Both the position numbers and the translations under genes were made by a program. Source: Bacteriovoracaceae bacterium (GTDB lineage: Bacteria; Bdellovibrionota; Bacteriovoracia; Bacteriovoracales; Bacteriovoracaceae). Taken from it: DNA of 64,000 nucleotides. Shown piece by piece: positions 1,322 to 56,716 of this stretch. Under the pieces are notes generated by a model that made no database searches, had not been told where the DNA came from, and saw only the letters and a list, made by a program, of their open reading frames with translations. Position 1 is the first letter of the stretch. Every line of letters starts with the position of its first letter. The stretch lies in NCBI GenBank assembly GCA_965140515.1, contig OZ223251.1:2199977-2263976 (forward strand), written 5' to 3'.

Positions 1322-1442
1322 TTACTTTTTGGCACCATAATTGCTCTTTATACTCACAAGTTACTTAATATCTGAATAATTCAGCAATATTTGTCTATTT
1401 AATGGACAGTCTGCTGTTTGATTGTACAACTTGGGAGTTTCT

Positions 1443-21638: not shown

Positions 21639-22181
21639 TTCGTTCACTTCAACATCAAATACTTTTTTTAGTTGATAGATATTAGTAGAGTTTTCAATAT
21701 TTGAACACGCTACATATTTTATCTTTTCCGGTGTTCTTGAAGTCTTATTCAGTTCGATAAATACAATTGGATACTCCACAGGCATTTTGCACAGAGATCT
21801 GAATCTTTCTTTAAGTTCAAAAGAATTGTATTTATCAATAAAGTTAAATATTGATTTTGAGGTAAGTGTCGCAAAATTGCCTTGAGTAATAAAGTCAAAG
21901 AAGTCATCTTGATCCACTTCTTCAGTACTCTTAATTTTGCCACCAAGTTCTTTAAATGTATATTTGATGAATAAATTATCCCCGGCACAATTTCTACAGT
22001 AGTTTTCTTTAACCGAACACTGAGAGTAATTGTCGCACAGGTTCGCACATTGGTAACTATCATCCTGATTACATTTAATATCAAGAATTTTGATGAAGTC
22101 CTCTGTCCATTTTGACTCAATGGTAAAGGCCAAGCTTGAGATACTCAGGAGTACTGATAGTAGTGCTATTACTATCTTCAT
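21636..22181 (-). CDS. Cys-rich secreted hypothetical protein (181 aa)
   Basis: Signal peptide MKIVIALLSVLLSISSLA and a CNQDDSYQCANLCDNYSQCSVKENYCRNC cluster. Its start overlaps the stop of the upstream gene (22178-22181). Confidence 0.5.
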   Translation of the reverse strand: MKIVIALLSVLLSISSLAFTIESKWTEDFIKILDIKCNQDDSYQCANLCDNYSQCSVKENYCRNCAGDNLFIKYTFKELGGKIKSTEEVDQDDFFDFITQGNFATLTSKSIFNFIDKYNSFELKERFRSLCKMPVEYPIVFIELNKTSRTPEKIKYVACSNIENSTNIYQLKKVFDVEVNE

Positions 22182-25126
22182 CTCTTCTCCTTTGGGAAAT
22201 TACAACTGCTATCTTCCCAGAAGTTATCTTTTGTAAGTTCCCCTCGACAGAACATTCCTGCTACCTTTGTATCAACTACTTTAATTCTATTTTTGCAGTG
22301 TTTCAGTTTTATGGTAGCGCTGTCTCTGTCTTCATCAATATAGGTTACCTGTGTATTAAACAGTTTTCCTGCTGCCTTAGAAATTGCATGTTCACACTTC
22401 GAAGGCATACAGTAAGATCCTTTTACTAATTTTTTCACACAGGACTTTGGGATAGTTCCATACCGTTTATATGTGTCGAGTACATTATTCGGATTTATTT
22501 CCCACCTACGAGGTATCTCTATCGGATCAGAGAATCCTCTGAAAAATCTCATAACACCTCTGATAAGGTAGTAACTGGTGCTTACAACGGGAATATTCGC
22601 AAAAGTTGCGACCCAATTACTCATTGTTTCAAAATTGATGGTGCAGCTCGCACATCCTTGAATTGTTTTCATTGAGTTTACATCAATGTCACTCGCCGAT
22701 TGAACGCGAATTTCGCCACCATTTTTATTCATCAGGCAGCCTTTAAAAGTATAACCTGCGAAATATGCCTTTTTTGAAAGCAAGTCTGCTGAATGATTTC
22801 CTACTGAAACAGTACAAGGAATATTTAATATTTTATTGAGATCTACGCCTAGTTCTCCTGGCCAGTTATGTCCACTCATTTGAGGATCAAATGTTAACTT
22901 TCCATCCTTCATCATCTTGTTAAAAGAGGTCGCGCGTTGAGGGACATAATCGACATTTAAATAAAATGGTGTAGGGTTTACCAAGCTAATCGCTGCTGCA
23001 GTTAAGTCCGAGAAGGTATTAAAGAGTGTCTTTTTAACTTTCCACCAAGGGTCATAGATCTTACACGCTGTTCTCTCAGCATATGGATTAATTAATGATG
23101 GATCATTGATATTCTGATCATTGACATAAAATGTTCTAAAGTAGCGTACTGCTGAATAGATTGAAGTTATTGATTCCAAAATCTTTCTTGAACAGTCTGA
23201 ACCGTTGAAGCAAATGGTGTTGCTAACGGTGTTTGCTCCTCTATTTTTTAGAAGTGGAGTTCCCCAAATTGAAATAGGAGAATCTCCCTTCTTACCGATT
23301 TCATCTTTTATGATTAGTTCTTTATACCAGTCAGAGAATCCAGACCTATCGACTTCAAAATTCTCCCAGATTCCCCTTTCTTCTAATTCATTACAGAAAC
23401 TTAGAACGGCCGGGGCAACTTGTTCAAAGTAATTATAGAACTCTTTGAGCCCTTTTGAAGTCAGTTTTTTAAATGTAGGGTCGAGCTCATTCATCTGCTT
23501 GAGATAATCTAGATCTGAGCGAATAAAACTCAAGGTTTCGTGTGCCGCAACATTGTACTCTGAGCATAGGTAATACAGTTCATTTTTAAGCCCATCAACT
23601 GTGATTTTTGATGCTCCTTGATGAGACCATGCTTCTCTATTGTTTTTCGCTTTATTAAGATTATTAATAATTGAATCTACAGATAGATATTTTGAAGTTA
23701 CTTCTAATGTACTGATAGCATTCATCAGTTTGTTTTTTATATATGATCTAGATTTTCTGATATTTTTTGCAAATGATTGGGCCCACTCGTTCATATCGGG
23801 AAACTTACCGTATTCAAGTATATCATTGTTGTAATCAACAAATGGGTCATCCAAGAGTTCTTTTTCTGCACCATTTGGAATTGATTTCATAAAGTCATGA
23901 TTAAGTGCCATTTTGTTGTATGAACTTTTGGCAAAGTCTCTTATACGTTGTGAACTTAAAAAATCGTTGTCGCACCTTGATGGAGAAGTACCTCTACAGT
24001 TTGTTGAGAAAAACATTACAGATTCTTCTAAGTAAATACTCTTGAAGACTTCTCCAAAAGGATATGACATTTGTTCGATTTGTTGCGAATTCCTAAATGC
24101 CCACGAATAATAAAGTTTAAGGCTATGCCAGAAATCAAATCCAGCTTTGTCCCAATTCTTCTTGTTCGTTCCAAGTATGTCTAGTTGGTATGCTACGGCC
24201 TCTAAAGAGGATTGAGCATCTATATCATCACATGTGGTTATATATTCACTTTGATCTCCTTGAGCGATTGCCAAGGACTCAAGAACTTTTTTGTTTGCAG
24301 CAACTGTCCCAACTTGGGCCATAAATGGAGAATATTTTTTTAGAAAGTGACAGCTTAGATTACTATTTTCTTTTTCATCGATAAGTTTGCTTCCAAAAAA
24401 ATGTTTTGATGAGAAATTATCAATCTCTCCCCAGATTTCTTTTGTTTGCTTGCGGTAGCTATATTTTCGATTATTCCAAATTTTAGCAATATATTGATCA
24501 AGTTCTTCACAGTATTCGTCAAGCTTACAGCCTTCAGAAATTTGCGAGTATTGCTTTAATAAATCTTTACGATAATTGTAATAGTCTGATGTGTCGTGAT
24601 TTGGTCGGGTTTGTTCTTTGAATCGTTTTTCAAGCGCACTTGCTGTTAGATCAGCATGTAGTAGGGGAAGCCTATCTTCAAAAATCTGATTTGCAATATA
24701 TTCGATCAGCTTATAACTTGAGTACCGAAATCTCGATACTCCCATTTTTGTTAATGCTCTGGGTTCTCTTCCTGTTGATAATGCTAATCTGTAGACCGAC
24801 TTGGCCGCATTCATACTATCGATGATCAAGTTAACTTGAGTTGTTGGCCTATTCGAATCATCAGCGCAACTTGAACGATTGGTAAACTGAAGGTTATTGA
24901 TTCGAAGATATTTTGCATCGATATTTGCTCTCTTCCACTGAGGAGATACATCTTTTAGATTTATTGGATCTTCATAAGACTTCTGTTGATCATCTTTTGC
25001 AATCTTTTCAGATTCAAGTTCTGCTTGGTAGTTGTCTCCTAAGATCTCGCTGGGCATAGTTGTCTCACCACTTGCTAGTGGTGTTAACAGATAAGCTAAT
25101 AATGTGAGTAGGGCCCAGTATTTCAT
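22178..25126 (-). CDS. Large secreted hypothetical protein (982 aa)
   Basis: Long uninterrupted ORF with signal peptide MKYWALLTLLAYLLTPLASG. Many Cys. No motif recognised. Confidence 0.6.
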   Translation of the reverse strand: MKYWALLTLLAYLLTPLASGETTMPSEILGDNYQAELESEKIAKDDQQKSYEDPINLKDVSPQWKRANIDAKYLRINNLQFTNRSSCADDSNRPTTQVNLIIDSMNAAKSVYRLALSTGREPRALTKMGVSRFRYSSYKLIEYIANQIFEDRLPLLHADLTASALEKRFKEQTRPNHDTSDYYNYRKDLLKQYSQISEGCKLDEYCEELDQYIAKIWNNRKYSYRKQTKEIWGEIDNFSSKHFFGSKLIDEKENSNLSCHFLKKYSPFMAQVGTVAANKKVLESLAIAQGDQSEYITTCDDIDAQSSLEAVAYQLDILGTNKKNWDKAGFDFWHSLKLYYSWAFRNSQQIEQMSYPFGEVFKSIYLEESVMFFSTNCRGTSPSRCDNDFLSSQRIRDFAKSSYNKMALNHDFMKSIPNGAEKELLDDPFVDYNNDILEYGKFPDMNEWAQSFAKNIRKSRSYIKNKLMNAISTLEVTSKYLSVDSIINNLNKAKNNREAWSHQGASKITVDGLKNELYYLCSEYNVAAHETLSFIRSDLDYLKQMNELDPTFKKLTSKGLKEFYNYFEQVAPAVLSFCNELEERGIWENFEVDRSGFSDWYKELIIKDEIGKKGDSPISIWGTPLLKNRGANTVSNTICFNGSDCSRKILESITSIYSAVRYFRTFYVNDQNINDPSLINPYAERTACKIYDPWWKVKKTLFNTFSDLTAAAISLVNPTPFYLNVDYVPQRATSFNKMMKDGKLTFDPQMSGHNWPGELGVDLNKILNIPCTVSVGNHSADLLSKKAYFAGYTFKGCLMNKNGGEIRVQSASDIDVNSMKTIQGCASCTINFETMSNWVATFANIPVVSTSYYLIRGVMRFFRGFSDPIEIPRRWEINPNNVLDTYKRYGTIPKSCVKKLVKGSYCMPSKCEHAISKAAGKLFNTQVTYIDEDRDSATIKLKHCKNRIKVVDTKVAGMFCRGELTKDNFWEDSSCNFPKEKR

Positions 25127-27638: not shown

Positions 27639-29243
27639 CTATTCAAGCCCATCCCAAGGACATACCACCTTGGGAAGCTCTGATATTTTTTTCATTTTGT
27701 TATTTTCGAATCTCGATTTTTTAATTTCAGTTATATCTTTGATTTTGAAGTTTCCTTCGACATCCATACCGCCAAGTGTGAAGTTAAGGGAAAGGGTCAT
27801 ATATGGACGTGAGCTGATAGTAAAACACTTATTATCTGAACACACCTTATCAAAATATTGTGGCCAATATCTAAATTTGCTAATGGTTTGAATTCCATCT
27901 GCTCCATCGCTTCCAGAATACTGTCCAAAATCTCTGATTACTCCATAGTCTGGTAGGATGTCGTGGTCCGTGATTTCTGGAATAGGCTTTGTACTCCCGA
28001 TTGTGGGGATTCCATTGAGAAGACTTGCGGCGAAGTCCATTGTTGGGATACCTGGAAGCGGCATAAATAAAGGAGTTACGCTTTTGTTATACATCGTGAA
28101 GTCAACTTTTGGGTCTCTAAATATAAGGTCTAGTTGGTACGTCTTTTCTTCACCCAGTTGGACTCCTTTAATCACTTGAGCGGGCATATTGAGTAATCCT
28201 TGCCAGTTTGGAATGGCCACGGAGCCGTCATACCATGATTTAAGATACGCTTTTTTTCCATTTATGATTTCAGAGAAGACAACTTCTGCGACCACGGGCT
28301 TTGAGTAGTTGCAGCTTGAAGTACAAATTTCTTCTAGGCAGCTTTTTTGGCAGTGAAAGTTATCAACAAGAAGTGGGAACTTTAAAATTGCAGCATCTCT
28401 GAGATTCTTAAGTTTTATATCTCCAAATGAAACTTCTGGAACCGTGTAATTTGCGGGTAGTTGAGGGACATCTCTCCCCCAGTCATCAGAGATAGTGAAA
28501 TGCTCTGAAGTTGGCTCAAGCATAAAATTGAAAAGCTTTGATGGGAGCAGCTCAAGATCTTGGGACATTCCTGTCGGTTTACTTGCGACCCCAAATGTGG
28601 TCGCGGCATTAATCTCTCTCAGTGAGATTTTTTGAGATTGTAAAAAGTCTCGCTCAAGACAGTTTTCTTTTATTCGATGACTAACAACAAACTCGCTGTC
28701 TTTATAGATTTTAAAAAAGCAGAATCCACCTTCAATAATGGCCTTTTGCTCACTTAGTTTTTTTACAGTACACCCTTGCTGTTGAGCACGATATTTTAAT
28801 GGCCGTGATGAGTTGTGGGATATTGTCGTTTCAACGCAATTCTTAAGAAAATCGGTTTTTGCTTTGTGTTCACTCTGTCGATCATTTTCGTTAATTGGTA
28901 AATTTAAGGTGTTATTCTCGATTTTACATTTTTGGGGATCAAGTGTGTCGGTATAGGCCGTTGTGTAGGTAGATGAATCAATGGAGTATTCGTTAACTCC
29001 AAAGCCTACCATGAGAAATTTTCCAGCGGCCTTTTCACAGCTATTAACGAGAACTCCCAGCTGGTGTGTCTCCGCTTTTTCACCGCGAAGTTCGAAGCGA
29101 TAAGTCTTATTCTTTTCAAGAGATGCTGAATATGAGTAGAGATCTGGACCATGAACTGAGCAGGACGTATCAACGCTTGTGGCAAATAGACTCCCACAGG
29201 CAATAAAAATAGTAATTGTTAGTAGAGCTCGATACATCTTCAT
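27639..29243 (-). CDS. Secreted, possibly lipidated, hypothetical protein (534 aa)
   Basis: Signal peptide MKMYRALLTITIFIACGSLFA with a weak lipobox-like IAC. Cys-rich. No family recognised. Confidence 0.55.
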   Translation of the reverse strand: MKMYRALLTITIFIACGSLFATSVDTSCSVHGPDLYSYSASLEKNKTYRFELRGEKAETHQLGVLVNSCEKAAGKFLMVGFGVNEYSIDSSTYTTAYTDTLDPQKCKIENNTLNLPINENDRQSEHKAKTDFLKNCVETTISHNSSRPLKYRAQQQGCTVKKLSEQKAIIEGGFCFFKIYKDSEFVVSHRIKENCLERDFLQSQKISLREINAATTFGVASKPTGMSQDLELLPSKLFNFMLEPTSEHFTISDDWGRDVPQLPANYTVPEVSFGDIKLKNLRDAAILKFPLLVDNFHCQKSCLEEICTSSCNYSKPVVAEVVFSEIINGKKAYLKSWYDGSVAIPNWQGLLNMPAQVIKGVQLGEEKTYQLDLIFRDPKVDFTMYNKSVTPLFMPLPGIPTMDFAASLLNGIPTIGSTKPIPEITDHDILPDYGVIRDFGQYSGSDGADGIQTISKFRYWPQYFDKVCSDNKCFTISSRPYMTLSLNFTLGGMDVEGNFKIKDITEIKKSRFENNKMKKISELPKVVCPWDGLE

Positions 29244-40329: not shown

Positions 40330-41610
40330 ATGGATAAACAGGAAAAACGAATCTTACTTTATTTTGCAATTGGGGCCATCCTCTTTGTTGTTATTGCCCT
40401 ATATAAAGGGGCCACACCGATGCTTCTTAAAAAAGAGATTAAATCTTCTGCAAAAAAAGTAAGTATAGTTTTTTCTATGGAAAATAAAAAGGGCGCTGGT
40501 CGCGACAATGGCGAGTTAAGTCCTATGCTCATTGTGAATGATGATATCTGCACTCTCGTAAATAAGCTTATTGTTCCCGATTCTATTGATAAACTTAATG
40601 CTTTGTTTTTTGGAGATACCAGAGATATTGATCTATCCACTGAATCTAAAAAAAGGCTGTGGAGCTTCTTTAAAGACTATGTTCATTTTGAAAAGACTGG
40701 TGTTTTGCCTTATCTTGTTGCTTTTGAAGAGGAATTAGAGGCAATAAAGGCAGGTCTATTAGCTGGCCAAACTTTTTCTAAGCGAAAAGGAATGGTGGAT
40801 TTTAAAAAGGCAAAATTGGCAATTGCTGAGCTTATTGAGAAGTATCCCAACAATGGCCTTTATCCCATTATGATGCATCGATTGTTGAAGGATATGGGGA
40901 CTTCTTACGAAGATCGGCGAATCTTTTTGCTTATGGCAATGGTGGCGCCGGAGTTTTATACTCCTGAATACCGCATCCGAAGGGCCTTTGAGCGCGAGTT
41001 TATCTCTTCTGTTTCTCGTTGGTATGCATTTGGAATGATGTATGGACCAAGTGTATTTTACGCCAATGCTAGTGCCATTGAGAAAATGATTAAAGATGAG
41101 AGTAAAGAGTTTGCTGATAAAGCATTGAGTTTTGCCCGCATGCTTCAAAAGAAAATGGATCATCAGGATGGTATTTATACTAGTGAGGCCAAAGCTTTGT
41201 ACGGATTATCTAATCGTATTATTAATGCGATTAATGAGCGTTGGGGAACCACTCACTCTTCTAAGTACAGTTATCTCGATGCATGGACCGTTGAGCCTCC
41301 CGCTCCATTTAAAGCGGAGATGGATGAGATTCATAAAGGGATAGATACATCTTTTAAATCAGGAGATAAAGAGTTGTACAAAGAGTATCTAAGAAAGCAA
41401 CGAGATCTCTACAAGCTGATTGATCAGTATAAAAAGGATCATAAGCTAGATGAAGCGGAACCAGAGGACTGGGAAAATCCATATGAAATGCTTAAGCAAA
41501 AAGAGTGCGATCGCACAGGGGCAGATCGTGAGTTTGAGGAATATATCAATGAGCGAGATCGTCCCTATAACTTCGCCCGCTACCTGAGACGGTATCGTCC
41601 CAATAGATAA
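40330..41610 (+). CDS. Membrane-anchored hypothetical protein (426 aa)
   Basis: One N-terminal hydrophobic helix (ILLYFAIGAILFVVIALY). Charged, helical-looking remainder. No family recognised. Confidence 0.5.
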   Translation: MDKQEKRILLYFAIGAILFVVIALYKGATPMLLKKEIKSSAKKVSIVFSMENKKGAGRDNGELSPMLIVNDDICTLVNKLIVPDSIDKLNALFFGDTRDIDLSTESKKRLWSFFKDYVHFEKTGVLPYLVAFEEELEAIKAGLLAGQTFSKRKGMVDFKKAKLAIAELIEKYPNNGLYPIMMHRLLKDMGTSYEDRRIFLLMAMVAPEFYTPEYRIRRAFEREFISSVSRWYAFGMMYGPSVFYANASAIEKMIKDESKEFADKALSFARMLQKKMDHQDGIYTSEAKALYGLSNRIINAINERWGTTHSSKYSYLDAWTVEPPAPFKAEMDEIHKGIDTSFKSGDKELYKEYLRKQRDLYKLIDQYKKDHKLDEAEPEDWENPYEMLKQKECDRTGADREFEEYINERDRPYNFARYLRRYRPNR

Positions 41611-47302: not shown

Positions 47303-47848
47303 ATGGTTTCTTCTAAGTTCTTCTCTGTTTTCGGTCAAATTGAGCTTGTTGCTCTCATTGTTGTGATTCTCTTTGATGTTCTATCTATATATTTTTTTGC
47401 CAAAAGATATATGCTTGGCTTTGTATTGGTGAGTATGAAGAATATCGATCGTGTTAGGTTACCTATGACGTTTCCTAAAAACGACACTATTATCTCCCAA
47501 GATCTCAAAATTTTTTGGGATCATCATAGCAATAAGATTTGGTTTCGATTGAGATGGCCGTTATTTCTAGTGGCGCCATTTGTTATTGGTAATTGGCACT
47601 TATCAAATGATAGAAGGACAATTATCAAAGAAAATATCAGACTTTCTTATTTTATTCCCGTGGTTATCGCATCTTGTGTTGCTGCAATTTGTTCTTTTTA
47701 CCTGCTAGATAGTATCCTTTACAATGGCCATATCCTGCCGCTGATCATTGCGATGATTTTTTTTGCTTCAAATATTGTATTTATGATTTCTCGCTTAAGA
47801 ATTGCTTCTAGTTTTTGCTTAGAAGAGTTTTCCGAGCTTACGGATTAA
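47303..47848 (+). CDS. Membrane hypothetical protein (181 aa)
   Basis: About 4 hydrophobic helices. No family recognised. Its 3' end overlaps the oleD 3' end by 11 nt. Confidence 0.4.
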   Translation: MVSSKFFSVFGQIELVALIVVILFDVLSIYFFAKRYMLGFVLVSMKNIDRVRLPMTFPKNDTIISQDLKIFWDHHSNKIWFRLRWPLFLVAPFVIGNWHLSNDRRTIIKENIRLSYFIPVVIASCVAAICSFYLLDSILYNGHILPLIIAMIFFASNIVFMISRLRIASSFCLEEFSELTD

Positions 47849-48842
47849 TTGTAGTAAGCTTCTCTTTCATTCTTATGAGTGACTCCTCTATTGATATTTT
47901 AGGATTATGGCCGAAATCATTTTTGGCGTTGGCCAGATTGAAAAAATGGGAAGTGCCAAGCTGAAGTGCAATGAAGCGAGTCATCGGTGGCTCAAATCTC
48001 TTGATCCTAAATATACTGAAGATCACTTCAATCACCGCTCCAACAGAGTATGCGAGCGCCATCGGAACACTTCTTTTGACCATTGGAGCACCAGAAATCT
48101 CTAAAAGTTGATTAATGAACTCCCAACAGTTCACAGGTCTTTCTTGTGCAATAAAGTAGGCCTTCCCCTCATTTTTAGATCCATGAGAAAGAACTTCATA
48201 GGCCTTAATGTGGGAATCAGCTGCGTTATCAACGTAGATAACATCTACTAGGTTCGTTCCTTGGCCAATCATTTTTAATCTTTTCTTTTTTGCTGCAAGT
48301 GTCAATCTCGGAAGTAGGTTTGGATCTTCCTCTCCATAGATTAAATGGGGACGGAGGGAAGTTGTTACAAGTTCTCCCTGTCCATTTGCTTTCATAATTA
48401 GCTTTTCCGCTTCCGCCTTGGTTTCAGCATAAAAAGTTAAAAAATGATCAGGGTACGGAGTAGACTCGTCCACACCTTTAAGGTCTTCTTTACCAAAAAC
48501 AACACTAGGGGTTGAGGTGTAGACTATCTTTTTCACTTTACGATTAATACATGCCTTAATTAGTTGCTCTGTACCTAGAACATTGGTCTTATAGAAGTCT
48601 TCTCTCTTCCCCCACATTCCAACTTTTGAAGCGACGTGAAAGACACCGTCTATCCCTTTTAGCGCATCATAGATTTGCTCGTAGTTAGTGATGTCTCCAC
48701 TAATCGTTTTAATTGGAAGATCTTTGAGTTCTTGATCGATCGTTCTAGAAAATGCAACGACGTAGTAATTTTTCTCTAACAGTTTTTTTACAATTTTTTT
48801 CCCGAGGAAACCTCTTGCCCCAGTTACAAGTACCTTTTCCAT
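47838..48842 (-). CDS. oleD: OleD-type NAD(P)H-dependent reductase (3beta-HSD / extended SDR family)
   Basis: VLVTGARGFLGKK Rossmann motif and 334 aa. Last gene of the A-B-C-D order; its start overlaps the oleC stop by 1 nt. Confidence 0.75.
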   Translation of the reverse strand: MEKVLVTGARGFLGKKIVKKLLEKNYYVVAFSRTIDQELKDLPIKTISGDITNYEQIYDALKGIDGVFHVASKVGMWGKREDFYKTNVLGTEQLIKACINRKVKKIVYTSTPSVVFGKEDLKGVDESTPYPDHFLTFYAETKAEAEKLIMKANGQGELVTTSLRPHLIYGEEDPNLLPRLTLAAKKKRLKMIGQGTNLVDVIYVDNAADSHIKAYEVLSHGSKNEGKAYFIAQERPVNCWEFINQLLEISGAPMVKRSVPMALAYSVGAVIEVIFSIFRIKRFEPPMTRFIALQLGTSHFFNLANAKNDFGHNPKISIEESLIRMKEKLTTINP

Positions 48843-50470
48843 TAGACCTCATTAAAAAAGTCTCTTAGCTTTATTCTATCAATTTTAATATTGTGTCTTA
48901 TATCGACGGGGAAATTTTGATAGTACAAAAAAGTAGAAATCTCTTTGGTATTCTCAGCTTTTGAGCCAAGGGAGAGAAGCTCTTTCTCAAGAGCTTTCTT
49001 TTCTTCTGAAGATATTTTCTTTGTCTTCACCTCGATTACTAGCGTTGGTGCGCCTTTATAATCGATAAGTGCTGTTCGCTTCACTTTTGGGTGTTGGTTA
49101 AAAACTGCTTCGCAACATACTGGGCATAATAATTTTTTACCAATCTCAATTCTATGAGTTTTTCTTCCGCAGAACCAAATACTTCCCTTAGAGTCAAGAT
49201 ACCCTAAGTCTCCAATCCTATGCCAAACTCTTTGACCATCAGCTGTTGTTTCATAAATTTTTGCCAACGCTGTATGTTCTGGTCTCTTATAATACTTATG
49301 AGTGACCACATCACCACTTACTATAATTTCTCCTATTTCCCCCTGTGGAAGCTCTTCTACGTCCCTAAGATCAATAATAACATCATCTGAAATCTTGATG
49401 ATTTTAACTGAGATACTATCTAATGGAGTTCCAACACATGTTCCAAGTCCTTCTAATGTTTTAGGCAGAGTTTCATTTAAAACCTCTGTTCCACTGATGC
49501 AGGAGACTGGAAGAGACTCTGTCGCACCGTATGGCGTATACGTATCTCCGTTGGGTAAAATCTTTCTAAATTTATTGTGAAGAACTCCTGACACGGGCGC
49601 TCCAAACATAACCAGATACTTAATGGTATCGAGGGTCAGATTGTTCTTAATGGCATAGTCTGCGACTCTTTCCCAAATGGCAGGAGAGCCTGCAACAAAT
49701 GTGCCTTTGTTATCTGTAATATTTTTGATGAGGTTTGCGGGATTACATTTACTCGGTTTCGAAGGGTTCATATCTGGAGGACAACTCGTCATTCCCATTG
49801 CTATTGCAAAGAGTGAGAATAGTGGAAATCCTGGGATGTCGACGTCAGCAGGAGTTAGGTTTAAAAGCTTCTGCAAAAGTTCAGTCTGCTCATTAAAAAT
49901 TCGATGAGTGTATACAACTCCTTTTGGTACGCCGGTACCTCCAGAAGTAAATAAAATTGCAGCGGTTTGATCGAGTCCAATTCGCTCAGTCTTGAATGTC
50001 GCATTTTTCTTCTTTGCAATTCCCTTTAATGACTTTGCTTTGCCGAAAGCAAGGTTGCCTGCTGTAATTGATACTTTGATGGTTTTAAAGGGGGCCGATG
50101 ACAGTGTTTTGAATACGAAAACCTCAGGCTCTGCGATCATTGCCTCTGGCCCAACTTCTCTTACCGCACCTAAAAGATTTTTCTTTCCCATCCCTGGGTC
50201 GATCATGATTGGAATTGCACCAAGTTTAAATAGTGCGAAAACTACTGCAGGAAAATTTAGCGAAGGGCGAATAAAGAGTAGGGTTTTCATCCCTTTCTTT
50301 ATGCCGTATTGATTGAAGTAAAACGCGTATTTGTTGGCAAGTAGATCTAGCTCTTCAAAAGATTTCCTTTTGTATTTGTATGAACCATCAAGTTGCTTGT
50401 TGTAAAACCTTATCGCATCTTTTGTAGGAGTTTTGTTTGCCCAATAGGAAAGGCGATCAGCAATATTCAC
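48842..50470 (-). CDS. oleC: OleC-type AMP-dependent ligase (beta-lactone synthetase)
   Basis: TSGGTGVPKG AMP-binding motif and 542 aa. Positioned between the oleB-like and oleD-like genes. Confidence 0.8.
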   Translation of the reverse strand: MNIADRLSYWANKTPTKDAIRFYNKQLDGSYKYKRKSFEELDLLANKYAFYFNQYGIKKGMKTLLFIRPSLNFPAVVFALFKLGAIPIMIDPGMGKKNLLGAVREVGPEAMIAEPEVFVFKTLSSAPFKTIKVSITAGNLAFGKAKSLKGIAKKKNATFKTERIGLDQTAAILFTSGGTGVPKGVVYTHRIFNEQTELLQKLLNLTPADVDIPGFPLFSLFAIAMGMTSCPPDMNPSKPSKCNPANLIKNITDNKGTFVAGSPAIWERVADYAIKNNLTLDTIKYLVMFGAPVSGVLHNKFRKILPNGDTYTPYGATESLPVSCISGTEVLNETLPKTLEGLGTCVGTPLDSISVKIIKISDDVIIDLRDVEELPQGEIGEIIVSGDVVTHKYYKRPEHTALAKIYETTADGQRVWHRIGDLGYLDSKGSIWFCGRKTHRIEIGKKLLCPVCCEAVFNQHPKVKRTALIDYKGAPTLVIEVKTKKISSEEKKALEKELLSLGSKAENTKEISTFLYYQNFPVDIRHNIKIDRIKLRDFFNEV

Positions 50471-51332
50471 GTATTTCTTCTCCTATTACTTCAATTACTT
50501 TTTCTAACTTGTCTTCAATTACGTAGTGTCCTGCATCTTTGAATGACACATTTCTTGCATTTGGGAAAAAATCAAGGAATCGATCTCTAAATTTTGTCGT
50601 AAAACAAAAGTCTTTTTCACCCCAGATTAGAGTCACATCTTTATCATTGATACTTGTAAGACTCTTTTCAACTTCCGCAAGTGTTTTGTATGTTGGATGT
50701 TTTAGTGAAAGTGGAATGTCTTTTACAAAACGAGCAACAGAAATTCTGTCGTTATAATTTTGGTAAGGGAGAAGGTATCCCCTTTTTACCGTCGTTGATA
50801 ATTTCTTAACCGTAGTCATAAAAGTTGCGGGCCATGCAAAAGCATTAAAGGCACGAACTATAAATTCACCAATAATAGGCAGCTTACAGATTGAAATCCT
50901 AAAAGGAATGTCAGTAGAATTAAATGCTGCGGTATTGAGCACAATGATGTTAGACATCAAATCTTTTTTTCTTGCGGCCACTCCAAAACCAATCGCTCCT
51001 CCCCAGTCGTGAACAATAAAAGTCGCCTTATCGATCTTAAGTGAGGCAAGAAGTTCTAATAGGTTCTGGATATGATTTTCAAGAGTATAGTTGTAATCCT
51101 GTGGTTTGTCCGAAAGACCCATACCTATATTATCTGGAGCGACAACTCGATTAGATTTCATAAAGTGCTTGATCAAATTGCGGTAATAAAATGACCATGT
51201 CGGGTTTCCATGGATCATTACGATGGGATGTCCATTCCCTTCATCAACATAGCTCATAGAGTGTCCTGAGCTAAGTTTCATTTTTTTAGGACTAAACGGG
51301 TATTCCTCTTTAATGTCTTCTAGATCTACCAT
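50457..51332 (-). CDS. oleB: OleB-type alpha/beta hydrolase (haloalkane-dehalogenase-like beta-lactone decarboxylase)
   Basis: HGNPTWSFYYRN and VHDWGG (Asp nucleophile), 291 aa. Overlaps oleA by 7 nt and oleC by 14 nt. Confidence 0.8.
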   Translation of the reverse strand: MVDLEDIKEEYPFSPKKMKLSSGHSMSYVDEGNGHPIVMIHGNPTWSFYYRNLIKHFMKSNRVVAPDNIGMGLSDKPQDYNYTLENHIQNLLELLASLKIDKATFIVHDWGGAIGFGVAARKKDLMSNIIVLNTAAFNSTDIPFRISICKLPIIGEFIVRAFNAFAWPATFMTTVKKLSTTVKRGYLLPYQNYNDRISVARFVKDIPLSLKHPTYKTLAEVEKSLTSINDKDVTLIWGEKDFCFTTKFRDRFLDFFPNARNVSFKDAGHYVIEDKLEKVIEVIGEEIREYC

Positions 51333-52357
51333 TTTACCCCCATCATAATTGAACTAAGACCACTACCGATTCCCAAGAGACCAATCAGTTCTCCTTTTTT
51401 CACCTCATTCTTCTCTGCTAAGTCGACAAGGGTTAGTGGAAGTGCAGCGGATCCTGTATTGCCTAGGAATGGGTAGGTATTATGGATCTTATTGGTGTGC
51501 ACCCCAAGGGATTCCATGATGAGCTTCTCGTGGGCCACTCCAACTTGATGTCCTATTATCCAGTCTGGTGTATTATTTTCCCATGAGAGAATTCTCTTAG
51601 TTTTCTCCCATGTTTCTTTCGCTAGCTCTAGCCCTTGGTGCATTAATTCTTCTGAGTCTGTTTCCATCATTAATGCATTTGGATTTCCATCTCCTTGACA
51701 CAATTTTGACGCTTCTGATTTACTCATCGCTCCCGCGCCAATGATTTGAGGTGCATTGGGAGCAAGGTCTTTTTTTGATATCACAAATGCAACGGCACCA
51801 GATCCAATTGTTAAGTTGGCAAAAAACTTCTTTACTGATTTTCTTGTGATTGTTAGATCGGTGAGTAGGTGATTAATCGTTTGGTCAAGAAGAGGCCCCC
51901 CATTTTCTCCAGAAACAATGAGAGCTCTCTCGATTTGACCATTTTCGATCATGTTTGCCGCAACGGTGACAGCGCTTAGAACTCCGAGGCAAGCGTTTGA
52001 TAGGTCGAAAAAAGTGCAGTGAGGAGAGAGCCCAAGATCAGCGTGTACGATGCTCGCTGTGGCCGGCTCGAGAAAGTTGCGACACACAGATGCATGAATC
52101 AGAAGATCAATTTTCTCTGGTGCAATGTTTGCCTTTTTTAGTGCATTTGCGCCAGCGTGAGCTGATAGGGTACTTGGTAGTACACCGCTATCCCAGTGTC
52201 TTCTTTCATTTATACCTGTCATAAGCTCCAATCTTCCGTGGGGAAGCCTGAGCCTTTCGTATAGGTCGTTGAGCCTCTCTTCAATCTGAGAGGACGAAAC
52301 CACTTCATCTGGTAAATATTTTCCAAATGATTCAATTACAACATTAGAAAAATTCAT
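51326..52357 (-). CDS. oleA: OleA-type thiolase (FabH-like head-to-head acyl condensing enzyme)
   Basis: 343 aa. Active-site Cys context DLSNACLGVL, with downstream HQVG and GNTGSAALP. The assignment as OleA rather than FabH rests mainly on the gene order. Confidence 0.8.
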   Translation of the reverse strand: MNFSNVVIESFGKYLPDEVVSSSQIEERLNDLYERLRLPHGRLELMTGINERRHWDSGVLPSTLSAHAGANALKKANIAPEKIDLLIHASVCRNFLEPATASIVHADLGLSPHCTFFDLSNACLGVLSAVTVAANMIENGQIERALIVSGENGGPLLDQTINHLLTDLTITRKSVKKFFANLTIGSGAVAFVISKKDLAPNAPQIIGAGAMSKSEASKLCQGDGNPNALMMETDSEELMHQGLELAKETWEKTKRILSWENNTPDWIIGHQVGVAHEKLIMESLGVHTNKIHNTYPFLGNTGSAALPLTLVDLAEKNEVKKGELIGLLGIGSGLSSIMMGVKW

Positions 52358-53742
52358 TTTAAACCTTTTAGACCATACAGGTTTGAGATTGAAATTCCGC
52401 TGAGCATTGATCCGACAATACCTAGGAACCCTTGGTCAGTACCAATAATGTGCAGCCCTTCTACTTCAGTCCTTCCATCCCTCGCCTTAATTGGTGAGCC
52501 ATAAACTGTTCCACTGAAGTGCCCAGTGTATCGCTTAATTGTCGTAGGGGTGAATACGTCTTTCTGTATCAATTCTGATTTATAGTGAGGATAAATTTTT
52601 TTGAATATATCCATCCCGCTTTCGATTATCTCTTCTTTCTTTGCGCGGTACATTTGCTTGTCTACTGCACGAAGTTCACTGAACCTTTCGAAGTTTGAGA
52701 TAAAAGTGAAACGTATGATTCCTTCAGGATAGTCATCATTGCCATAGTTGTTTGGCATACAGATAACTGCTGAGTTTGGATCATAGAAATCAATTGGCTT
52801 CTGATAGCGGTACTTTGGACCATTGTTATAAAAAACAATAGTGTCATCAATTTCAAAATCTTTTGGCCTATCTTTAAAGCAGAGTATTGTTTCTGAAAAT
52901 GACATCTCTCCAATCTGGTGATCTCTTGCATGTCCCCCTTCAACCATTGTTAAAGTTTCTGGGAGTCCTGCAGAAGAAAATATCATTGGTGCCTCATAAG
53001 TTTCACCAATTGACGTTTTGACTCCGTATGCAGCCCCATCTTTTGTCAATATTTGCTCAACTGTAGAGTTGTATTTTAGAGTTCCACCAAGTTTTGCAAA
53101 TCTTGCCAGTAGGATATCAATTATTTTCCTTACTCCACCTTTGGGTCTAGAGAATCCTTCAAGGTAGATACTTTTAAACATAATCACAAATTGTGATAAA
53201 TCCATGTCATTTGGAAGGGCACTACCATAGATGAGTAGGGGGCATAAAATCATTTCTATGAGATATGGGTCTGATATATATTCTGCAACAACTGGCCTTG
53301 CAGGGGTAAACTTATTTGTTAGGTTCGTTTCATCAAATGTATTGATAAAATTAATTAGGCGATTGAAGCCGTCAACCTCACTTGGGAATTTAACTTCAAT
53401 CTCATTGATTAAAAAATCAATCTCATTTGTGAATTCAAGCGTGTGGTCAGGGAAGTAGATCTTAGATCTATTCTGTGGTGATAATTCTAGTGCATCATAT
53501 GGGATTCTAAGCTGCTTTAAGAGCTTGTTTAGAGGTTTTCCTTTCTCTCCCTTTGCAATGTAATTTGTCATCGCATGGAGTCCCACATCAAAGATTTGGT
53601 TGCCTCTTGTGTAATATGAGTTTAACCCGCCTGGTGCAAAATGCGACTCCAAAATTAAGACCTTCTTGTCATACATTTGGAGTCGGATGCCGGCGGCGAG
53701 TCCACTCATGCCGGCACCAATAATAATAGCATCAAAACTCAT
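52354..53742 (-). CDS. FAD-dependent oxidoreductase of the phytoene-desaturase (CrtI-like) family
   Basis: N-terminal FDAIIIGAGMSGLAAG...ILESHFAPGG and 462 aa. Its stop overlaps the oleA start (4 nt) and its start overlaps the ACP stop (1 nt). Confidence 0.7.
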   Translation of the reverse strand: MSFDAIIIGAGMSGLAAGIRLQMYDKKVLILESHFAPGGLNSYYTRGNQIFDVGLHAMTNYIAKGEKGKPLNKLLKQLRIPYDALELSPQNRSKIYFPDHTLEFTNEIDFLINEIEVKFPSEVDGFNRLINFINTFDETNLTNKFTPARPVVAEYISDPYLIEMILCPLLIYGSALPNDMDLSQFVIMFKSIYLEGFSRPKGGVRKIIDILLARFAKLGGTLKYNSTVEQILTKDGAAYGVKTSIGETYEAPMIFSSAGLPETLTMVEGGHARDHQIGEMSFSETILCFKDRPKDFEIDDTIVFYNNGPKYRYQKPIDFYDPNSAVICMPNNYGNDDYPEGIIRFTFISNFERFSELRAVDKQMYRAKKEEIIESGMDIFKKIYPHYKSELIQKDVFTPTTIKRYTGHFSGTVYGSPIKARDGRTEVEGLHIIGTDQGFLGIVGSMLSGISISNLYGLKGLK

Positions 53743-53993
53743 TAGTTAAACTTAGGAGCTAGATACTCTACACAGCTTTGAAGTGTTGCTAGGTGTGGGT
53801 AATCATCTTGTGGAACTTCTATTTGATGTCTCTTTTTAAGCTCCATAACGATGTCGAGGAAATCCATTGAGTCTAAGTCTAATTGATCTCTTAGTGTAAC
53901 TTCATCTTTAATATCGTCTAGGTCTTCGTCAAGCGCAACATCCGCAATAATATCTAATACGTGTTGTCTTACTTGTTCATTAGTTAGTGCCAT
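53742..53993 (-). CDS. Acyl carrier protein (dedicated)
   Basis: 83 aa, acidic, with the LDLDSMDFLDIV phosphopantetheine-Ser motif. Confidence 0.85.
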   Translation of the reverse strand: MALTNEQVRQHVLDIIADVALDEDLDDIKDEVTLRDQLDLDSMDFLDIVMELKKRHQIEVPQDDYPHLATLQSCVEYLAPKFN

Positions 53994-54017
53994 AATTTTC
54001 TCCTTATAGGTCTTACT

Positions 54018-55250
54018 TTATTCTTCGAATTTTTTTACGATAACAGCAGAGTTAATCCCCAGCATTCCAAATGAATTGTTGAGAATGTATTTAACATCAT
54101 GTTTTTTAGGTTCCTGATATACCAGATTCATCAAATTACATCTCTCATCAATTTCTCCCATTTTTTGGGTAGGGTGAATGAAACCATCTTCAAAACTTGG
54201 AATGTTACCTGCAAGCTCAAGAGCTCCTGCCGCTCCCATGCAATGACCAATTAGGCCTTTTGTTGTATTGATGAATGTATTTTTTGAGTGACCGAAAACA
54301 CTACTTACTGCTTCACACTCAATCACATCTCCTGAAGGTGTTCCTGTTGCATGCATGCTTACAAGGTCAATGTCATCGGCACTTAGTCCTGCTTTAGTAA
54401 GTGCTTTATTCATACACTCGATTTGGCGTTCTGCATTTGGGAGAACAAAGTCAGAAGCATCAGAGTTGATGTGGTACCCCACAATCTCTCCATAAATCTT
54501 TGCTCCACGTTTTTTTGCGTCTTCGTATCTTTCAAGGGTATAAACCGCTCCGCCTTCTGAAACAACAATTCCGTTTCTTTCTTTATCAAGAGGTCTTGAT
54601 GCTAGGAGTGCATCATCATGTGCTCCTAGGGCCCCTTGAGAGCGGAATGCCGCGAAGATCCCGAATGTATGTGCTGATTCAGAAACTCCACCGGCAAGAG
54701 CGATATCAACCTCTCCAAGAGTAAGCATTTGGAGTCCATGGATTAATCCCATATTTCCAGCAGCGCATGCAGCACCAACTGTCATATGTGGACCTGTGAT
54801 TTTTAGGTTGAGTGTAACTTCTCCTGCTGGAGAGTTTGCTACAGTTCTTGGATTGTGATGATGTGACCAAAGTCCAGCATCAAGATTATGAACATTATAA
54901 AGATCATGAATTTCATGTTCTGTTTCAACATTGCCATGCTCTGTAATTCCGAGGTAAACGCCAATTCTTGAACGATCCAGTTCTTCGATATTCAGTCCTG
55001 CAGAGTTGAGGGCCTCATTTGCGCAATAAATTGAAATTGCTCCGGCACGGGTTCCTCTCTTTCTCATCTTTTTCTTTTGGTATTTACTTTCATCAAAGTC
55101 ACAAAGCCCTGCGGCAACCTTTCCTACGTGTCTCATTTCTACGTGAGAAATCCCCGACTTTTGTTCGAGTAATGAATTACGGAATTCCTCAATAGAGTTT
55201 CCGTTTGGAGCAGTAAGCCCAATACCTGTTATTACAATTCTTTGTCTCAT
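54018..55250 (-). CDS. fabF: Beta-ketoacyl-ACP synthase I/II (elongating KAS)
   Basis: IVITGIGLTAPNG, active-site Cys in VGAACAAG, and His contexts HATGTPSGD and GHCMGAAG. Confidence 0.85.
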   Translation of the reverse strand: MRQRIVITGIGLTAPNGNSIEEFRNSLLEQKSGISHVEMRHVGKVAAGLCDFDESKYQKKKMRKRGTRAGAISIYCANEALNSAGLNIEELDRSRIGVYLGITEHGNVETEHEIHDLYNVHNLDAGLWSHHHNPRTVANSPAGEVTLNLKITGPHMTVGAACAAGNMGLIHGLQMLTLGEVDIALAGGVSESAHTFGIFAAFRSQGALGAHDDALLASRPLDKERNGIVVSEGGAVYTLERYEDAKKRGAKIYGEIVGYHINSDASDFVLPNAERQIECMNKALTKAGLSADDIDLVSMHATGTPSGDVIECEAVSSVFGHSKNTFINTTKGLIGHCMGAAGALELAGNIPSFEDGFIHPTQKMGEIDERCNLMNLVYQEPKKHDVKYILNNSFGMLGINSAVIVKKFEE

Positions 55251-55885
55251 TTTGTTTCCCCAGTAAATTTCAAAATACCATCTTTAATTCTTCCTGCAAT
55301 ATTTGTTGCAATTGCATGAGGTAGATTGGTATCTTTGCTGTCGGCCAAGAAGCCAAGCATATCTTTAAAACGTTTACTAATTTTTTTATAGCTGTAATTG
55401 TCGCCATAGGATGTGATGTGGATGAGGAAATTAATCATAGATTCCCCAAGCTCTGTGGCCAACATTATAGACTCTAATCTTTTACTTCTCGTTGAGCCTT
55501 GTTCTGATTCCTTTTCTTTTAAAACTCGTTCGGCCATGAGGTGGATTTCTTCAATGTGTTGTAACTCTCGTTTTCTAAAAACAGATGCCACAATAGCAAG
55601 ACCGTCATCCTTTGCTTTATGAAGCTTTGTTCTTGTTCCTCTTTGCTCAACAGATTCTACAGCACCATACATATCTAGTTTTTTAATTGATTGACTGACG
55701 GCACTTTGAGAAATTTCGAGAATGCTTTGAATCTCTTCTGAGGAGACCGGTCTCTTTGAGAGAACAAGCAGTCCAAAAATAGCGCCATCAATTTTCTTAA
55801 AACCAAAACGGCTTAGAAAATTCTCAAAGACGGTGAGTTCACCAAGAAGCTCGGGCTCTATGGGTGAGTCATTTGTGTTAGTCAT
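55247..55885 (-). CDS. Winged-helix transcriptional regulator (MarR/GbsR-like)
   Basis: GAIFGLLVLSKRPVSSEEIQSILEISQSAVSQSIKKLDMYGAVESV... looks like a wHTH. First gene of the operon; its stop overlaps the KAS start (ATGA). Confidence 0.55.
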   Translation of the reverse strand: MTNTNDSPIEPELLGELTVFENFLSRFGFKKIDGAIFGLLVLSKRPVSSEEIQSILEISQSAVSQSIKKLDMYGAVESVEQRGTRTKLHKAKDDGLAIVASVFRKRELQHIEEIHLMAERVLKEKESEQGSTRSKRLESIMLATELGESMINFLIHITSYGDNYSYKKISKRFKDMLGFLADSKDTNLPHAIATNIAGRIKDGILKFTGETK

Positions 55886-55907: not shown

Positions 55908-55923
55908 ATTACAAAATTGTAAT
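55908..55923. promoter_or_regulatory. Inverted repeat; candidate operator
   Basis: ATTACAA-aa-TTGTAAT lies 23 nt upstream of the regulator start codon. It is followed by a second AT-only inverted repeat, AATATATA-aaa-TATATATT (55921-55939). Confidence 0.35.
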
Positions 55924-55952
55924 ATATAAAATATATATTCAAAGTGTTTAAT

Positions 55953-55981
55953 ATTTAAAATTTTTAAATATCTATTGTCAA
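55953..55981 (-). promoter_or_regulatory. Sigma70-type promoter candidate for the regulator-KAS-ACP-ole operon
   Basis: On the minus strand: TTGACA (55981-55976), a 17-nt spacer, then TTAAAT (55958-55953). Confidence 0.4.
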
Positions 55982-56042
55982 AGACTAAAGCGAAAAAATT
56001 TTAATGTCGATAACTCATTGAGAATTAATAAAAGGATTGCCC

Positions 56043-56357
56043 GTGGGACTTGTAAAAAAACATAGCTCAAAAAGGCGCTACTTGCGCTATAAGTCCGCAC
56101 ACAATTTGCTGTGTGGATTATATTTTGGTGATGATCTTGAGATGTATTCCCCCGAAATTGTTGGGATTGTTTGTAATGAGAGCTATAAGGGATGTTCTTT
56201 TGCCACGGTTGCTTCCGAGAAGATCAAAAAGGGTCTTCATATTTGTATCCAGGTTGGAGAGTTGTCTCCAGTTGTAGGGGTTATTCGCTGGGTTAATGAG
56301 GTAGATGAGGATCTTTTTAAGGTTGGGGTCGAGTATTTGATCGACCATATTAAATAG
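56043..56357 (+). CDS. Single-domain PilZ protein (c-di-GMP receptor candidate)
   Basis: RRYLR (RxxxR) and NESYKG (D/NxSxxG) about 30 aa apart. GTG 56043 lies 6 nt after AAAGGA; the ORF track starts at TTG 56037. Confidence 0.6.
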   Translation: MGLVKKHSSKRRYLRYKSAHNLLCGLYFGDDLEMYSPEIVGIVCNESYKGCSFATVASEKIKKGLHICIQVGELSPVVGVIRWVNEVDEDLFKVGVEYLIDHIK

Positions 56358-56370
56358 GATTGGTTTTAAG

Positions 56371-56691
56371 ATGAATGATATGAAGAAAAGGCGTTACTAT
56401 CGTTTCGCTCCAGAGAAGAACACCTTAGCTAGTATTAGTTTTGGTGATGACCCATCCTTACATCGCCCAGAAATCGTTGGCCTTGTTTATGAAGAGGCCT
56501 ATAAAGGTTGTGGTCTCGTCTGTATTTATGATGAGCGACTCGCGATTGATTCAAAGTGTATTGTTGAGTGTGGAGATCTTAGTCCAACCACCTCTACTAT
56601 AAGGTGGGTTAAAAAGCTCGATGAGACTACTATTAAAATTGGGGTCGAGTACGATATTAAAGATGTGAGAACTGCAAAAGGAAATAAATAG
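56371..56691 (+). CDS. PilZ-like paralog with a degenerate second motif
   Basis: Clear paralog of 56043..56357 (FGDD, PEIVG, YKGC, GELSP/GDLSP, IRWV, GVEY). It keeps RRYYR, but the second motif reads EEAYKG. Confidence 0.55.
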   Translation: MNDMKKRRYYRFAPEKNTLASISFGDDPSLHRPEIVGLVYEEAYKGCGLVCIYDERLAIDSKCIVECGDLSPTTSTIRWVKKLDETTIKIGVEYDIKDVRTAKGNK

Positions 56692-56716
56692 GGCCTCATT
56701 AGAGGCCCATTTTTTT
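56691..56716. terminator. Bidirectional rho-independent terminator
   Basis: GGGCCTC-atta-GAGGCCC followed by ATTTTTTT, between convergent genes. Confidence 0.7.

Follow-up and report, generated by a model that had tools for sequence, protein, structure and literature searches.

A 64,000-nucleotide stretch of DNA from a Bacteriovoracaceae bacterium (contig OZ223251.1, positions 2,199,977 to 2,263,976; referred to as the window), whose host is a predatory bacterium of the Bdellovibrionota, contains a gene cluster in which homologs of the olefin biosynthesis genes oleABCD are preceded by genes for a regulator (Reg), a β-ketoacyl-acyl carrier protein synthase (KAS), an acyl carrier protein (ACP) and a flavoprotein that we named FLV. 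The eight open reading frames (ORFs) are all located on the minus strand and run from position 55885 down to position 47838:

55247-55885, minus strand: Reg, winged-helix regulator, first gene of the operon, 212 aa
54018-55250, minus strand: KAS, FabF-like β-ketoacyl-ACP synthase, 410 aa
53742-53993, minus strand: ACP, acyl carrier protein, 83 aa
52354-53742, minus strand: FLV, CrtI/CrtISO-family FAD flavoprotein, 462 aa
51326-52357, minus strand: OleA, head-to-head Claisen-condensing thiolase, 343 aa
50457-51332, minus strand: OleB, haloalkane-dehalogenase-like α/β hydrolase (β-lactone decarboxylase), 291 aa
48842-50470, minus strand: OleC, ANL-family β-lactone synthetase, 542 aa, GTG start
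47838-48842, minus strand: OleD, 3β-HSD-type 2-alkyl-3-oxoalkanoate reductase, 334 aa

A first-pass annotation of this DNA had described eight same-strand genes with overlaps of 1-14 nt and a single gap, and the ORF list contains them with identical coordinates. Neighboring genes overlap by 4 nt (Reg/KAS), 1 nt (ACP/FLV), 4 nt (FLV/oleA), 7 nt (oleA/oleB), 14 nt (oleB/oleC) and 1 nt (oleC/oleD), and the sole gap among the eight genes, 24 nt long, lies between KAS and ACP. The motifs quoted in that annotation were likewise all found in the translations, which contain FFDLSNACLGV, HGNPTWSFYYRN, VHDWGG, TSGGTGVPKG, VTGARGFLG, and LDSMDF. An 81%-identical relative, a Bacteriovoracaceae metagenome bin, harbors the identical set of eight genes with the same overlaps and flanks, and therefore the arrangement is conserved. 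Since each of the eight ORFs has a strong family match and recurs in this relative, they are not chance ORFs. A scan for internal terminators revealed no convincing one; the single weak minus-strand match lies inside oleB and is within chance, as 10 terminators were found in total versus 8.6 expected from shuffles. Judged from this layout, the eight genes are a translationally coupled operon that combines OleABCD with what is probably its own substrate-supply module.

The assignment of the last four genes to OleA, OleB, OleC and OleD, as already given in the first-pass annotation, is borne out by the family comparisons. OleA matches the NCBIfam model PRK09258 with 415 bits, which is above the cut-off of 285, and aligns with the Xanthomonas campestris OleA structure 3ROW with E=1.7e-67, whereas the best FabH reaches 7e-22. 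The thiolase is hence nearer to OleA than to housekeeping FabH, a distinction that had been suggested as a check. It is about 45% identical over the full length to the solved Xanthomonas enzyme, as read off the alignment, and the equivalents of Glu117, Cys143, His285, and Asn315 (X. campestris numbering) are all conserved. Furthermore, it shares 60% identity with the OleA encoded in a Halobacteriovorax marinus locus; the OleA of H. marinus is active in vivo in a p-nitrophenyl ester assay, which was reported without discussion of its gene context (Smith et al., PMC7064751). OleB has the Pfam domain Abhydrolase_1, scores 161 bits with the haloalkane dehalogenase models (below their cut-off of 241), matches dehalogenases of the PDB at about E=1e-31, and contains the HDWGG nucleophile motif as well as a C-terminal GH. 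As the searched libraries contain no OleB-specific model, its assignment rests on family, motifs and gene position, and the position of oleB between oleA and oleC is conserved in related loci. OleC exceeds the cut-off of PRK09274 (581 versus 478 bits) and matches the olefin β-lactone synthetase equivalogs over the full length with 467 and 458 bits at cut-offs of 900 and 850, with the next ANL family at 180 bits. OleD matches the NCBIfam oxyalk_red models over the full length with 370 and 347 bits at a cut-off of 580, with the next family at 139 bits; it also matches Pfam 3Beta_HSD (1.5e-57) and contains GxxGxxG and YxxxK motifs. Because of these scores below the equivalog cut-offs, OleC and OleD are to be seen as probable, divergent members of their families, with no other family near. 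By these comparisons, the last four genes are genuine oleA-oleB-oleC-oleD homologs.

The KAS contains both the N- and the C-terminal ketoacyl-synt domains of Pfam, scores 306 bits with the fabF equivalog TIGR03150 (cut-off 494), and has E. coli FabF as its nearest solved structure (E=8e-64). The catalytic Cys-His-His, which had been taken as a sign of a dedicated elongating KAS, aligns with that of E. coli FabF, and together with the Lys it is conserved across 71 orthologs. Across phyla, KAS identity amounts to 58-73%. The alignment of the 71 orthologs contains three motifs with a conservation of at least 90% that set them apart from FabF. These are GITEHGNVETE in place of GSGIGGLGLIE, W[ST]HHHNPRTVAN in place of ISPFFVPSTIVN, and NSFGMLGIN in place of NSFGFGGTN. 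Two short segments are thereby replaced in at least 90% of the subfamily, GFGG by GMLG and SPFFVP by SHHHNP, which we take to be the gating loop and a hydrophobic pocket segment of FabF, respectively. Since the three conserved motifs differ from FabF, the KAS is, as far as alignments tell, a distinct and strongly constrained FabF-like subfamily with a remodeled pocket. The ACP belongs to Pfam PP-binding and stays below all housekeeping ACP cut-offs (best 51.7 versus 66 bits). The phosphopantetheine serine of the operon's own ACP is that of its LDSMDF motif, which in the alignment with solved ACPs falls on their DSL serine; among the solved ACPs, no special similarity to any specialized one was found. 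In related loci the ACP gene is always located between KAS and FLV. The regulator had been designated as MarR/GbsR-type. Its winged helix is retained, but of TrmB type: it matches Pfam TrmB with 28.2 bits (cut-off 25.6), plus HTH_11 and HTH_27, whereas the GbsR label fits only loosely, as the GbsR-family model CudC of NCBIfam reaches 28 bits versus a cut-off of 218. Homologs of Reg with 31-49% identity are encoded directly upstream of KAS in Bdellovibrionota and Planctomycetota loci.

FLV contains the Pfam domains Amino_oxidase and NAD_binding_8 and an N-terminal FAD motif of the type GxGxxG (IIGAGMSGLAAG). Its best NCBIfam match is the carotenoid isomerase model carot_isom with 112 bits at a cut-off of 587, and crtI_fam is matched with 59.5 bits at a cut-off of 238. 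The AlphaFold model (mean predicted confidence pLDDT 83.8, predicted template-modeling score pTM 0.86) finds its best folds by Foldseek in the CrtD-type desaturase 4REP (TM score 0.74), in 3KA7 and in CrtI 4DGK, at about 16% identity. The fold matches and the GxGxxG motif together correspond to the three-domain FAD-dependent CrtI fold, in agreement with the earlier description of a 462-aa phytoene-desaturase-family flavoprotein whose stop codon runs into the start of oleA, with 4 nt shared by the two genes. According to profile scores and the predicted structure, FLV is placed within the CrtI superfamily and outside every characterized subfamily. At least 7390 homologs were found at E<=1e-10. 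A protein on a 3.72-Mb contig is identical to FLV, its relatives bear the names Bacteriovoracaceae, Halobacteriovorax and Bacteriovorax, and a lookup by exact sequence gave no record. No carotenoid family was present among the window ORFs scanned, which are a part of all ORFs.

FLV relatives were searched for in one genome per species, which gave 578 places, and the best 80 loci were analyzed. They belong to Bdellovibrionota, Syntrophia (Smithella), Planctomycetota, Chloroflexota (Dehalococcoidia), Nitrospinota, Verrucomicrobiota (Opitutia, Puniceicoccaceae), and Lentisphaerota. The eight window proteins were mapped onto these loci, and only loci with enough flanking sequence were counted, so that the denominators vary. 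In 65 of 69 loci FLV is immediately preceded by KAS and ACP, and the neighbors of FLV in these loci are KAS, ACP and ole genes, not carotenoid genes. Directly after FLV, oleA is found in 43/74 loci, including all 36 of the Bdellovibrionota and seven of eight of the Syntrophia. Within 10 kb, oleA is present in 33 of 41 loci, and all four ole genes with conserved order in 26 of these 41. When the ORFs of all loci were clustered without supervision, further companions emerged: a second flavoprotein paralog, FLV2, which is 22-25% identical to FLV and likewise carotenoid-isomerase-like, FabG, a FabZ/FabA-like dehydratase, a FabI-like reductase, and additionally in the Dehalococcoidia loci an Sfp-type phosphopantetheinyl transferase (PPTase). 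The arrangements differ between the groups:

Smithella: KAS-ACP-FLV-oleA-oleB-oleC-oleD-FLV2-FabG-FabZ-FabI, on one strand
Dehalococcoidia: oleA-KAS-ACP-FLV-FLV2-FabG-FabZ-FabI-PPTase
Nitrospinota: module without ole genes within 10 kb
Planctomycetota: oleABCD or oleA upstream of (Reg-)KAS-ACP-FLV-FLV2
Freshwater Bacteriovorax and H. marinus: arrangement of the window, with a convergent FLV2-FabG-FabZ-FabI set a few kb past oleD

The gene-neighborhood survey that had been suggested by the first-pass annotation thus shows that the KAS-ACP-flavoprotein set recurs in other genomes, across at least seven phyla and largely in company with ole genes. Synteny across phyla (65/69, 33/41) thereby confirms the three upstream genes and connects them with ole. 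The linkage outlasts several independent rearrangements across phyla, with the ole genes embedded in the module in Smithella and oleA alone fused to it in Dehalococcoidia, which argues for a functional link between module and ole rather than chance proximity. FLV2, FabG, FabZ, and FabI were found neither in the 64-kb window nor near the operon of the 81%-identical relative. Therefore, as judged from gene content, the window has a reduced version of a larger module.

Several loci show peculiarities of their own. In 14 Bacteriovoracaceae loci a histone-fold doublet gene, which is absent from the window, is located directly upstream of and divergent from KAS (e.g., L074 7845-8291). In Smithella (L005 1784-4148, L014 3620-6002, and L019 4978-7291) the cluster has a tandem pair of further KAS genes upstream of it, encoded on the other strand; the pair is 28-31% identical to the window KAS and reminiscent of ketosynthase/chain-length-factor pairs. 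The Smithella-type FLV2 (L006 13056-14471) is 63-72% identical to FLV2 of Halobacteriovorax and Bdellovibrionales, which together with the common collinear KAS-ACP-FLV-oleABCD order of Smithella and Bdellovibrionota suggests that the whole cluster was horizontally transferred between phyla. In the Dehalococcoidia loci L056, L057, L065, L067, and L073, oleA stands alone before the module, without oleBCD within 10 kb and with the Sfp-type PPTase at the end. Genes for condensation-domain, DUF362 and SRPBCC proteins are located nearby, and in L065 oleA-KAS is duplicated. On the basis of gene content, these loci may represent a product line leading to a ketone or another non-olefin compound. A gene for an AI-2E family transporter lies between oleC and oleD in the freshwater Bacteriovorax-type loci L021, L040, L042, and L044. 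Other syntenic neighbors in Bdellovibrionota were considered for a link to lipid synthesis and rejected as unrelated, namely a LysM/SLT transglycosylase, a γ-glutamyltranspeptidase, a sodium:solute symporter, MobB, and an exonuclease.

The OleABCD systems of X. campestris and Stenotrophomonas maltophilia consist of the same four enzyme families in the same order, and the Glu, Cys, His and Asn residues of OleA are kept. However, they are fed by bulk products of type II fatty acid synthesis (FAS-II) without a dedicated KAS, ACP, or flavoenzyme. In Shewanella and Photobacterium, a dedicated ACP-based synthase, Pfa, gives OleA an unsaturated chain, resulting in the C31:9 hydrocarbon, and is often encoded in an adjacent cluster (PMC6463001, PMC3098273). 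Pfa resembles the arrangement described here in this respect, but it is a multidomain type-I megasynthase with FabA-like dehydratase domains that set the double bonds, whereas the window encodes discrete type-II proteins and a CrtI-family flavoenzyme. No KS-AT-ACP gene of the PfaA-D type was found in the window, whose largest ORF has 982 aa and no Pfam family. In the FabA/FabB, FabM/FabF, and FabX systems, an enzyme that makes or moves an acyl-ACP double bond is paired with a condensing enzyme that extends the unsaturated intermediate. FabA, FabM, and FabX belong to the hotdog dehydratase, crotonase, and FMN/Fe-S flavoenzyme families, respectively, unlike FLV, and we know of no link of any of these systems to ole. 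The phytoene-dehydrogenase-related FAD protein UfaD of Rhodobacter, which takes part in furan fatty acid synthesis, desaturates fatty acyl chains at a position adjacent to a double bond already present (PMC7380195). It is likened to FLV by description. As points of difference, UfaD acts on phospholipid-bound methyl-branched chains, appears to need O2, and is not encoded together with KAS, ACP, and ole.

Desulfotalea psychrophila and anammox bacteria have clusters in which variant FabF and ACP genes are located beside amine-oxidase/phytoene-dehydrogenase-like genes, in D. psychrophila with tandem phytoene-dehydrogenase-like genes in FAS-II clusters; unlike the operon described here, they encode radical-SAM enzymes and a pair of FabF and inactive FabF, and no link to ole has been described (PMC2649909). 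D. psychrophila has no Pfa synthase, yet makes hydrocarbons of the types C31:8 and C31:9. It was proposed that polyunsaturated chains arise there anaerobically, through an extension of FAS-II by desaturases (Rattray et al., 2009, PMC2649909). The phytoene-dehydrogenase-like enzymes of the anammox ladderane clusters make no lycopene, and no function is known for them (PMC4790861, PMC10139942). Of the features of the anammox "cluster I" (amxACP-amxFabZ-FabF2-FabFmut-PDH-radical SAM), the second KAS, FabZ and radical-SAM genes were not found in the operon, which has a single KAS. The 2009 proposal predates the discovery of the ole genes. Planctomyces maris and Opitutaceae TAV2 reportedly make C31:9 as well, which is not used as evidence here. 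A B12 radical-SAM gene was considered as a link to the anammox clusters and rejected, since the window does not contain it and, in the 81%-identical relative, housekeeping genes separate it from the operon at a distance of 9 kb. When a deltaproteobacterial FLV2 was used as query, the matches listed were all proteins of Syntrophales and Bdellovibrionota.

Taking gene content, synteny and known systems together, we consider it probable that the operon couples OleABCD with its own acyl-supply module, by which a special, probably unsaturated, acyl-ACP is provided and condensed by OleA into a long-chain olefin. The specialized FabF-like KAS would lengthen an acyl chain on the dedicated ACP, and FLV, as a CrtI/CrtISO-family enzyme, would add or move a double bond on the ACP-bound chain, with KAS acting as the counterpart of what FabB is to FabA and extending an unusual unsaturated intermediate. 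Two such acyl thioesters would then be condensed by OleA, the 3-keto group reduced by OleD, the β-lactone closed by OleC and decarboxylated by OleB, and the product, destined for the membrane, would be an internal olefin with a long and probably (poly)unsaturated chain, with the winged-helix regulator presumably governing the entire set. A dedicated, modified acyl-ACP for OleA, as the first-pass annotation had suggested, is the best-supported reading and has a precedent, since OleA draws acyl-ACP from the dedicated Pfa synthase in vivo (PMC6463001); following Allemann et al., a dedicated ACP-based supply line for OleA is therefore established logic. From the conserved gene linkage and from this analogy we infer that the module feeds OleA. 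The reaction of FLV and the degree of unsaturation are matters of speculation, and the sequence leaves room for a desaturase, for a redox-neutral isomerase, which corresponds to the best family match, or for another activity. Because the module of the window is incomplete, ketoreduction, dehydration and enoyl-reduction must here come from the housekeeping FAS-II, i.e., FabG, FabZ, and FabI, or from genes outside the window. For the full module with FLV2-FabG-FabZ-FabI, we regard it as a tentative possibility that polyunsaturated acyl-ACP is formed by it along a type-II route that relies on flavoenzymes and needs no oxygen.

Several points weigh against such a dedicated supply line. The linkage frequencies were determined in the 80 loci nearest to the FLV of the window, of at least 578, and may not hold family-wide. 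The absence of FLV2, FabG, FabZ, and FabI from the window leaves the local module incomplete, and OleC as well as OleD score below the equivalog cut-offs. Nitrospinota and some Planctomycetota loci have the module but no ole gene at a distance of up to 10 kb, so its product may be independent of Ole, and the link between the module and an Ole product is itself drawn from genomic evidence. Moreover, expression of the anammox homologs in E. coli did not lead to polyunsaturated fatty acids (PMC4790861, PMC10139942). The Desulfotalea genes DP2405 and DP2406, like the anammox genes kuste3607 and kuste3336, resemble the FLV families by description and are no more than candidate members.

The loci without ole genes would also fit an alternative that we regard as unlikely, i.e., that the module makes a special membrane-lipid fatty acid independently of Ole, that OleA uses bulk acyl-CoA or acyl-ACP, and that the two gene sets adjoin through a common role in membrane-lipid homeostasis and common regulation. 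Nitrospinota, as well as some loci of Planctomycetota and Verrucomicrobiota, have the module with FLV2-FabG-FabZ-FabI but no ole gene within 10 kb, and the Pfa synthase likewise supplies both phospholipids and Ole (PMC6463001). However, such independence agrees poorly with the 4-nt overlap of FLV and oleA and with oleA directly following FLV in 43/74 loci, with oleABCD lying inside the module in Smithella and oleA alone being fused to its front in Dehalococcoidia, and with a linkage that outlasts several independent rearrangements. The same comparison bears on the substrate of FLV. It is rather improbable that FLV acts after the condensation by desaturating, isomerizing, or saturating an Ole intermediate or the olefin, with KAS and ACP only boosting precursors, even if the analogy to CrtI, CrtISO, and RetSat, which act on long hydrocarbon chains, the fold nearest to carotenoid desaturases with their long apolar substrates, the best family match to a carotenoid isomerase, and the position of the FLV gene immediately before oleA are in its favor. 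FLV and FLV2 stay with KAS, ACP, and FabGZI also where oleBCD (Chloroflexota) or all ole genes (Nitrospinota) are absent within 10 kb of the locus, which fits an acyl-ACP role better, and thus FLV most likely acts on ACP-bound acyl chains and not on the finished hydrocarbon.

With respect to the end product, the first part of the earlier suggestion of a novel hydrocarbon or β-lactone lipid is favored. OleA, OleD, and OleC together yield β-lactones and some clusters end there, but these β-lactone-making clusters are devoid of oleB (PMC7064751), whereas the operon has an intact oleB with the Asp nucleophile motif, in canonical position and overlapping both neighbors. By this analogy an olefin is the more likely product, and a β-lactone lipid as the end product appears very improbable. 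For an ordinary ole locus with three upstream biosynthetic genes as chance neighbors there is hardly any room left: characterized ole loci as in Xanthomonas and Shewanella need no such genes, which is all that can be said in its favor, and it is already contradicted by the overlapping reading frames and by a linkage conserved across seven phyla.

The dedicated supply module thus remains the favored reading, and parts of it are already known, i.e., the Ole pathway, the 2009 idea of FAS-II plus phytoene-dehydrogenase-like genes for polyunsaturated hydrocarbons (PMC2649909), and the H. marinus OleA assay. The first-pass annotation knew of no characterized ole locus of this architecture. The architecture is not rare, with 578 places of FLV relatives and KAS plus ACP in 65 of 69 loci, but a description of it was not found in the literature searched. 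For a linkage of ole with phytoene-type genes, this literature gave nothing beyond Rattray et al. (2009), and it contained no follow-up of the Desulfotalea proposal. Nor did the same literature describe the conserved fusion across phyla that joins oleABCD genetically to an ACP, a specific subfamily of KAS and one or two flavoenzymes of the CrtI family, or the full seven-gene module, or the distinctive KAS signature. To our knowledge, O2-dependent desaturases and Pfa megasynthases are the only two established routes to polyunsaturated acyl chains, and a route with discrete proteins and CrtI-family flavoenzymes would, if true, be a third one. It would represent the missing pathway for C31:9-type hydrocarbons of Pfa-less bacteria, i.e., Desulfotalea, planctomycetes, Opitutaceae, and perhaps these predators, and would explain the C31:8 and C31:9 hydrocarbons found in 2009 in a strict anaerobe without Pfa synthase. 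Likewise, it would provide a function for a family of more than 7000 homologs that is labeled "phytoene dehydrogenase" in databases, also in carotenoid-free organisms. It would be related as well to the unexplained phytoene-dehydrogenase-like enzymes of the anammox ladderane clusters, and would be relevant to what the homologous enzyme does there. The system is experimentally tractable, with H. marinus and Bacteriovorax stolpii as cultured carriers and with the compact 7-8-gene operon of the window as a natural minimal construct for heterologous expression, and tailored long-chain olefins are of interest as fuels and speciality chemicals.

The cluster is flanked on one side by housekeeping genes without relation to it (SPFH/NfeD, amidohydrolase, histidine phosphatase, and adenosine deaminase) and on the other side by an unrelated membrane transporter gene. 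Two further features are located upstream of Reg:

55921-55959, minus strand: candidate promoter (weak), two overlapping sigma-70-like matches with 9/12 positions, 36-74 nt upstream of the Reg start
56691-56708, no strand assigned: strong G+C-rich hairpin, 7-bp stem (6 G-C pairs) with T runs on either strand, marking the edge of the locus on the upstream side

Promoter-like sites are no more numerous in the scan than expected by chance, and the candidate at 55921-55959 is a suggestion only. The hairpin lies between small divergent ORFs and the SPFH gene. An Rfam scan of the window revealed no RNA elements. Four large window ORFs, at 1422-3980, 22178-25126, 27639-29243, and 40330-41610 (852, 982, 534, and 426 aa), gave no match to Pfam at E<=1e-5. 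The small ORFs divergent from the operon (56037-56357 and 56371-56691, both plus strand) are tandem paralogs of 106 aa. Their RRxxxR and [DN]xSxxG motifs are reminiscent of PilZ receptors for cyclic di-GMP, with no Pfam match even at E<=0.01, and the pair is also present in the 81%-identical relative (L081 7056-7706). At the other end, a hydrophobic 181-aa ORF without family match (47303-47848, plus strand) extends 11 nt into the 3′ end of oleD. The spacing between oleD and the transporter gene is 38 nt in the 81%-identical relative, and the window has about 600 bp of extra A+T-rich DNA at this position.

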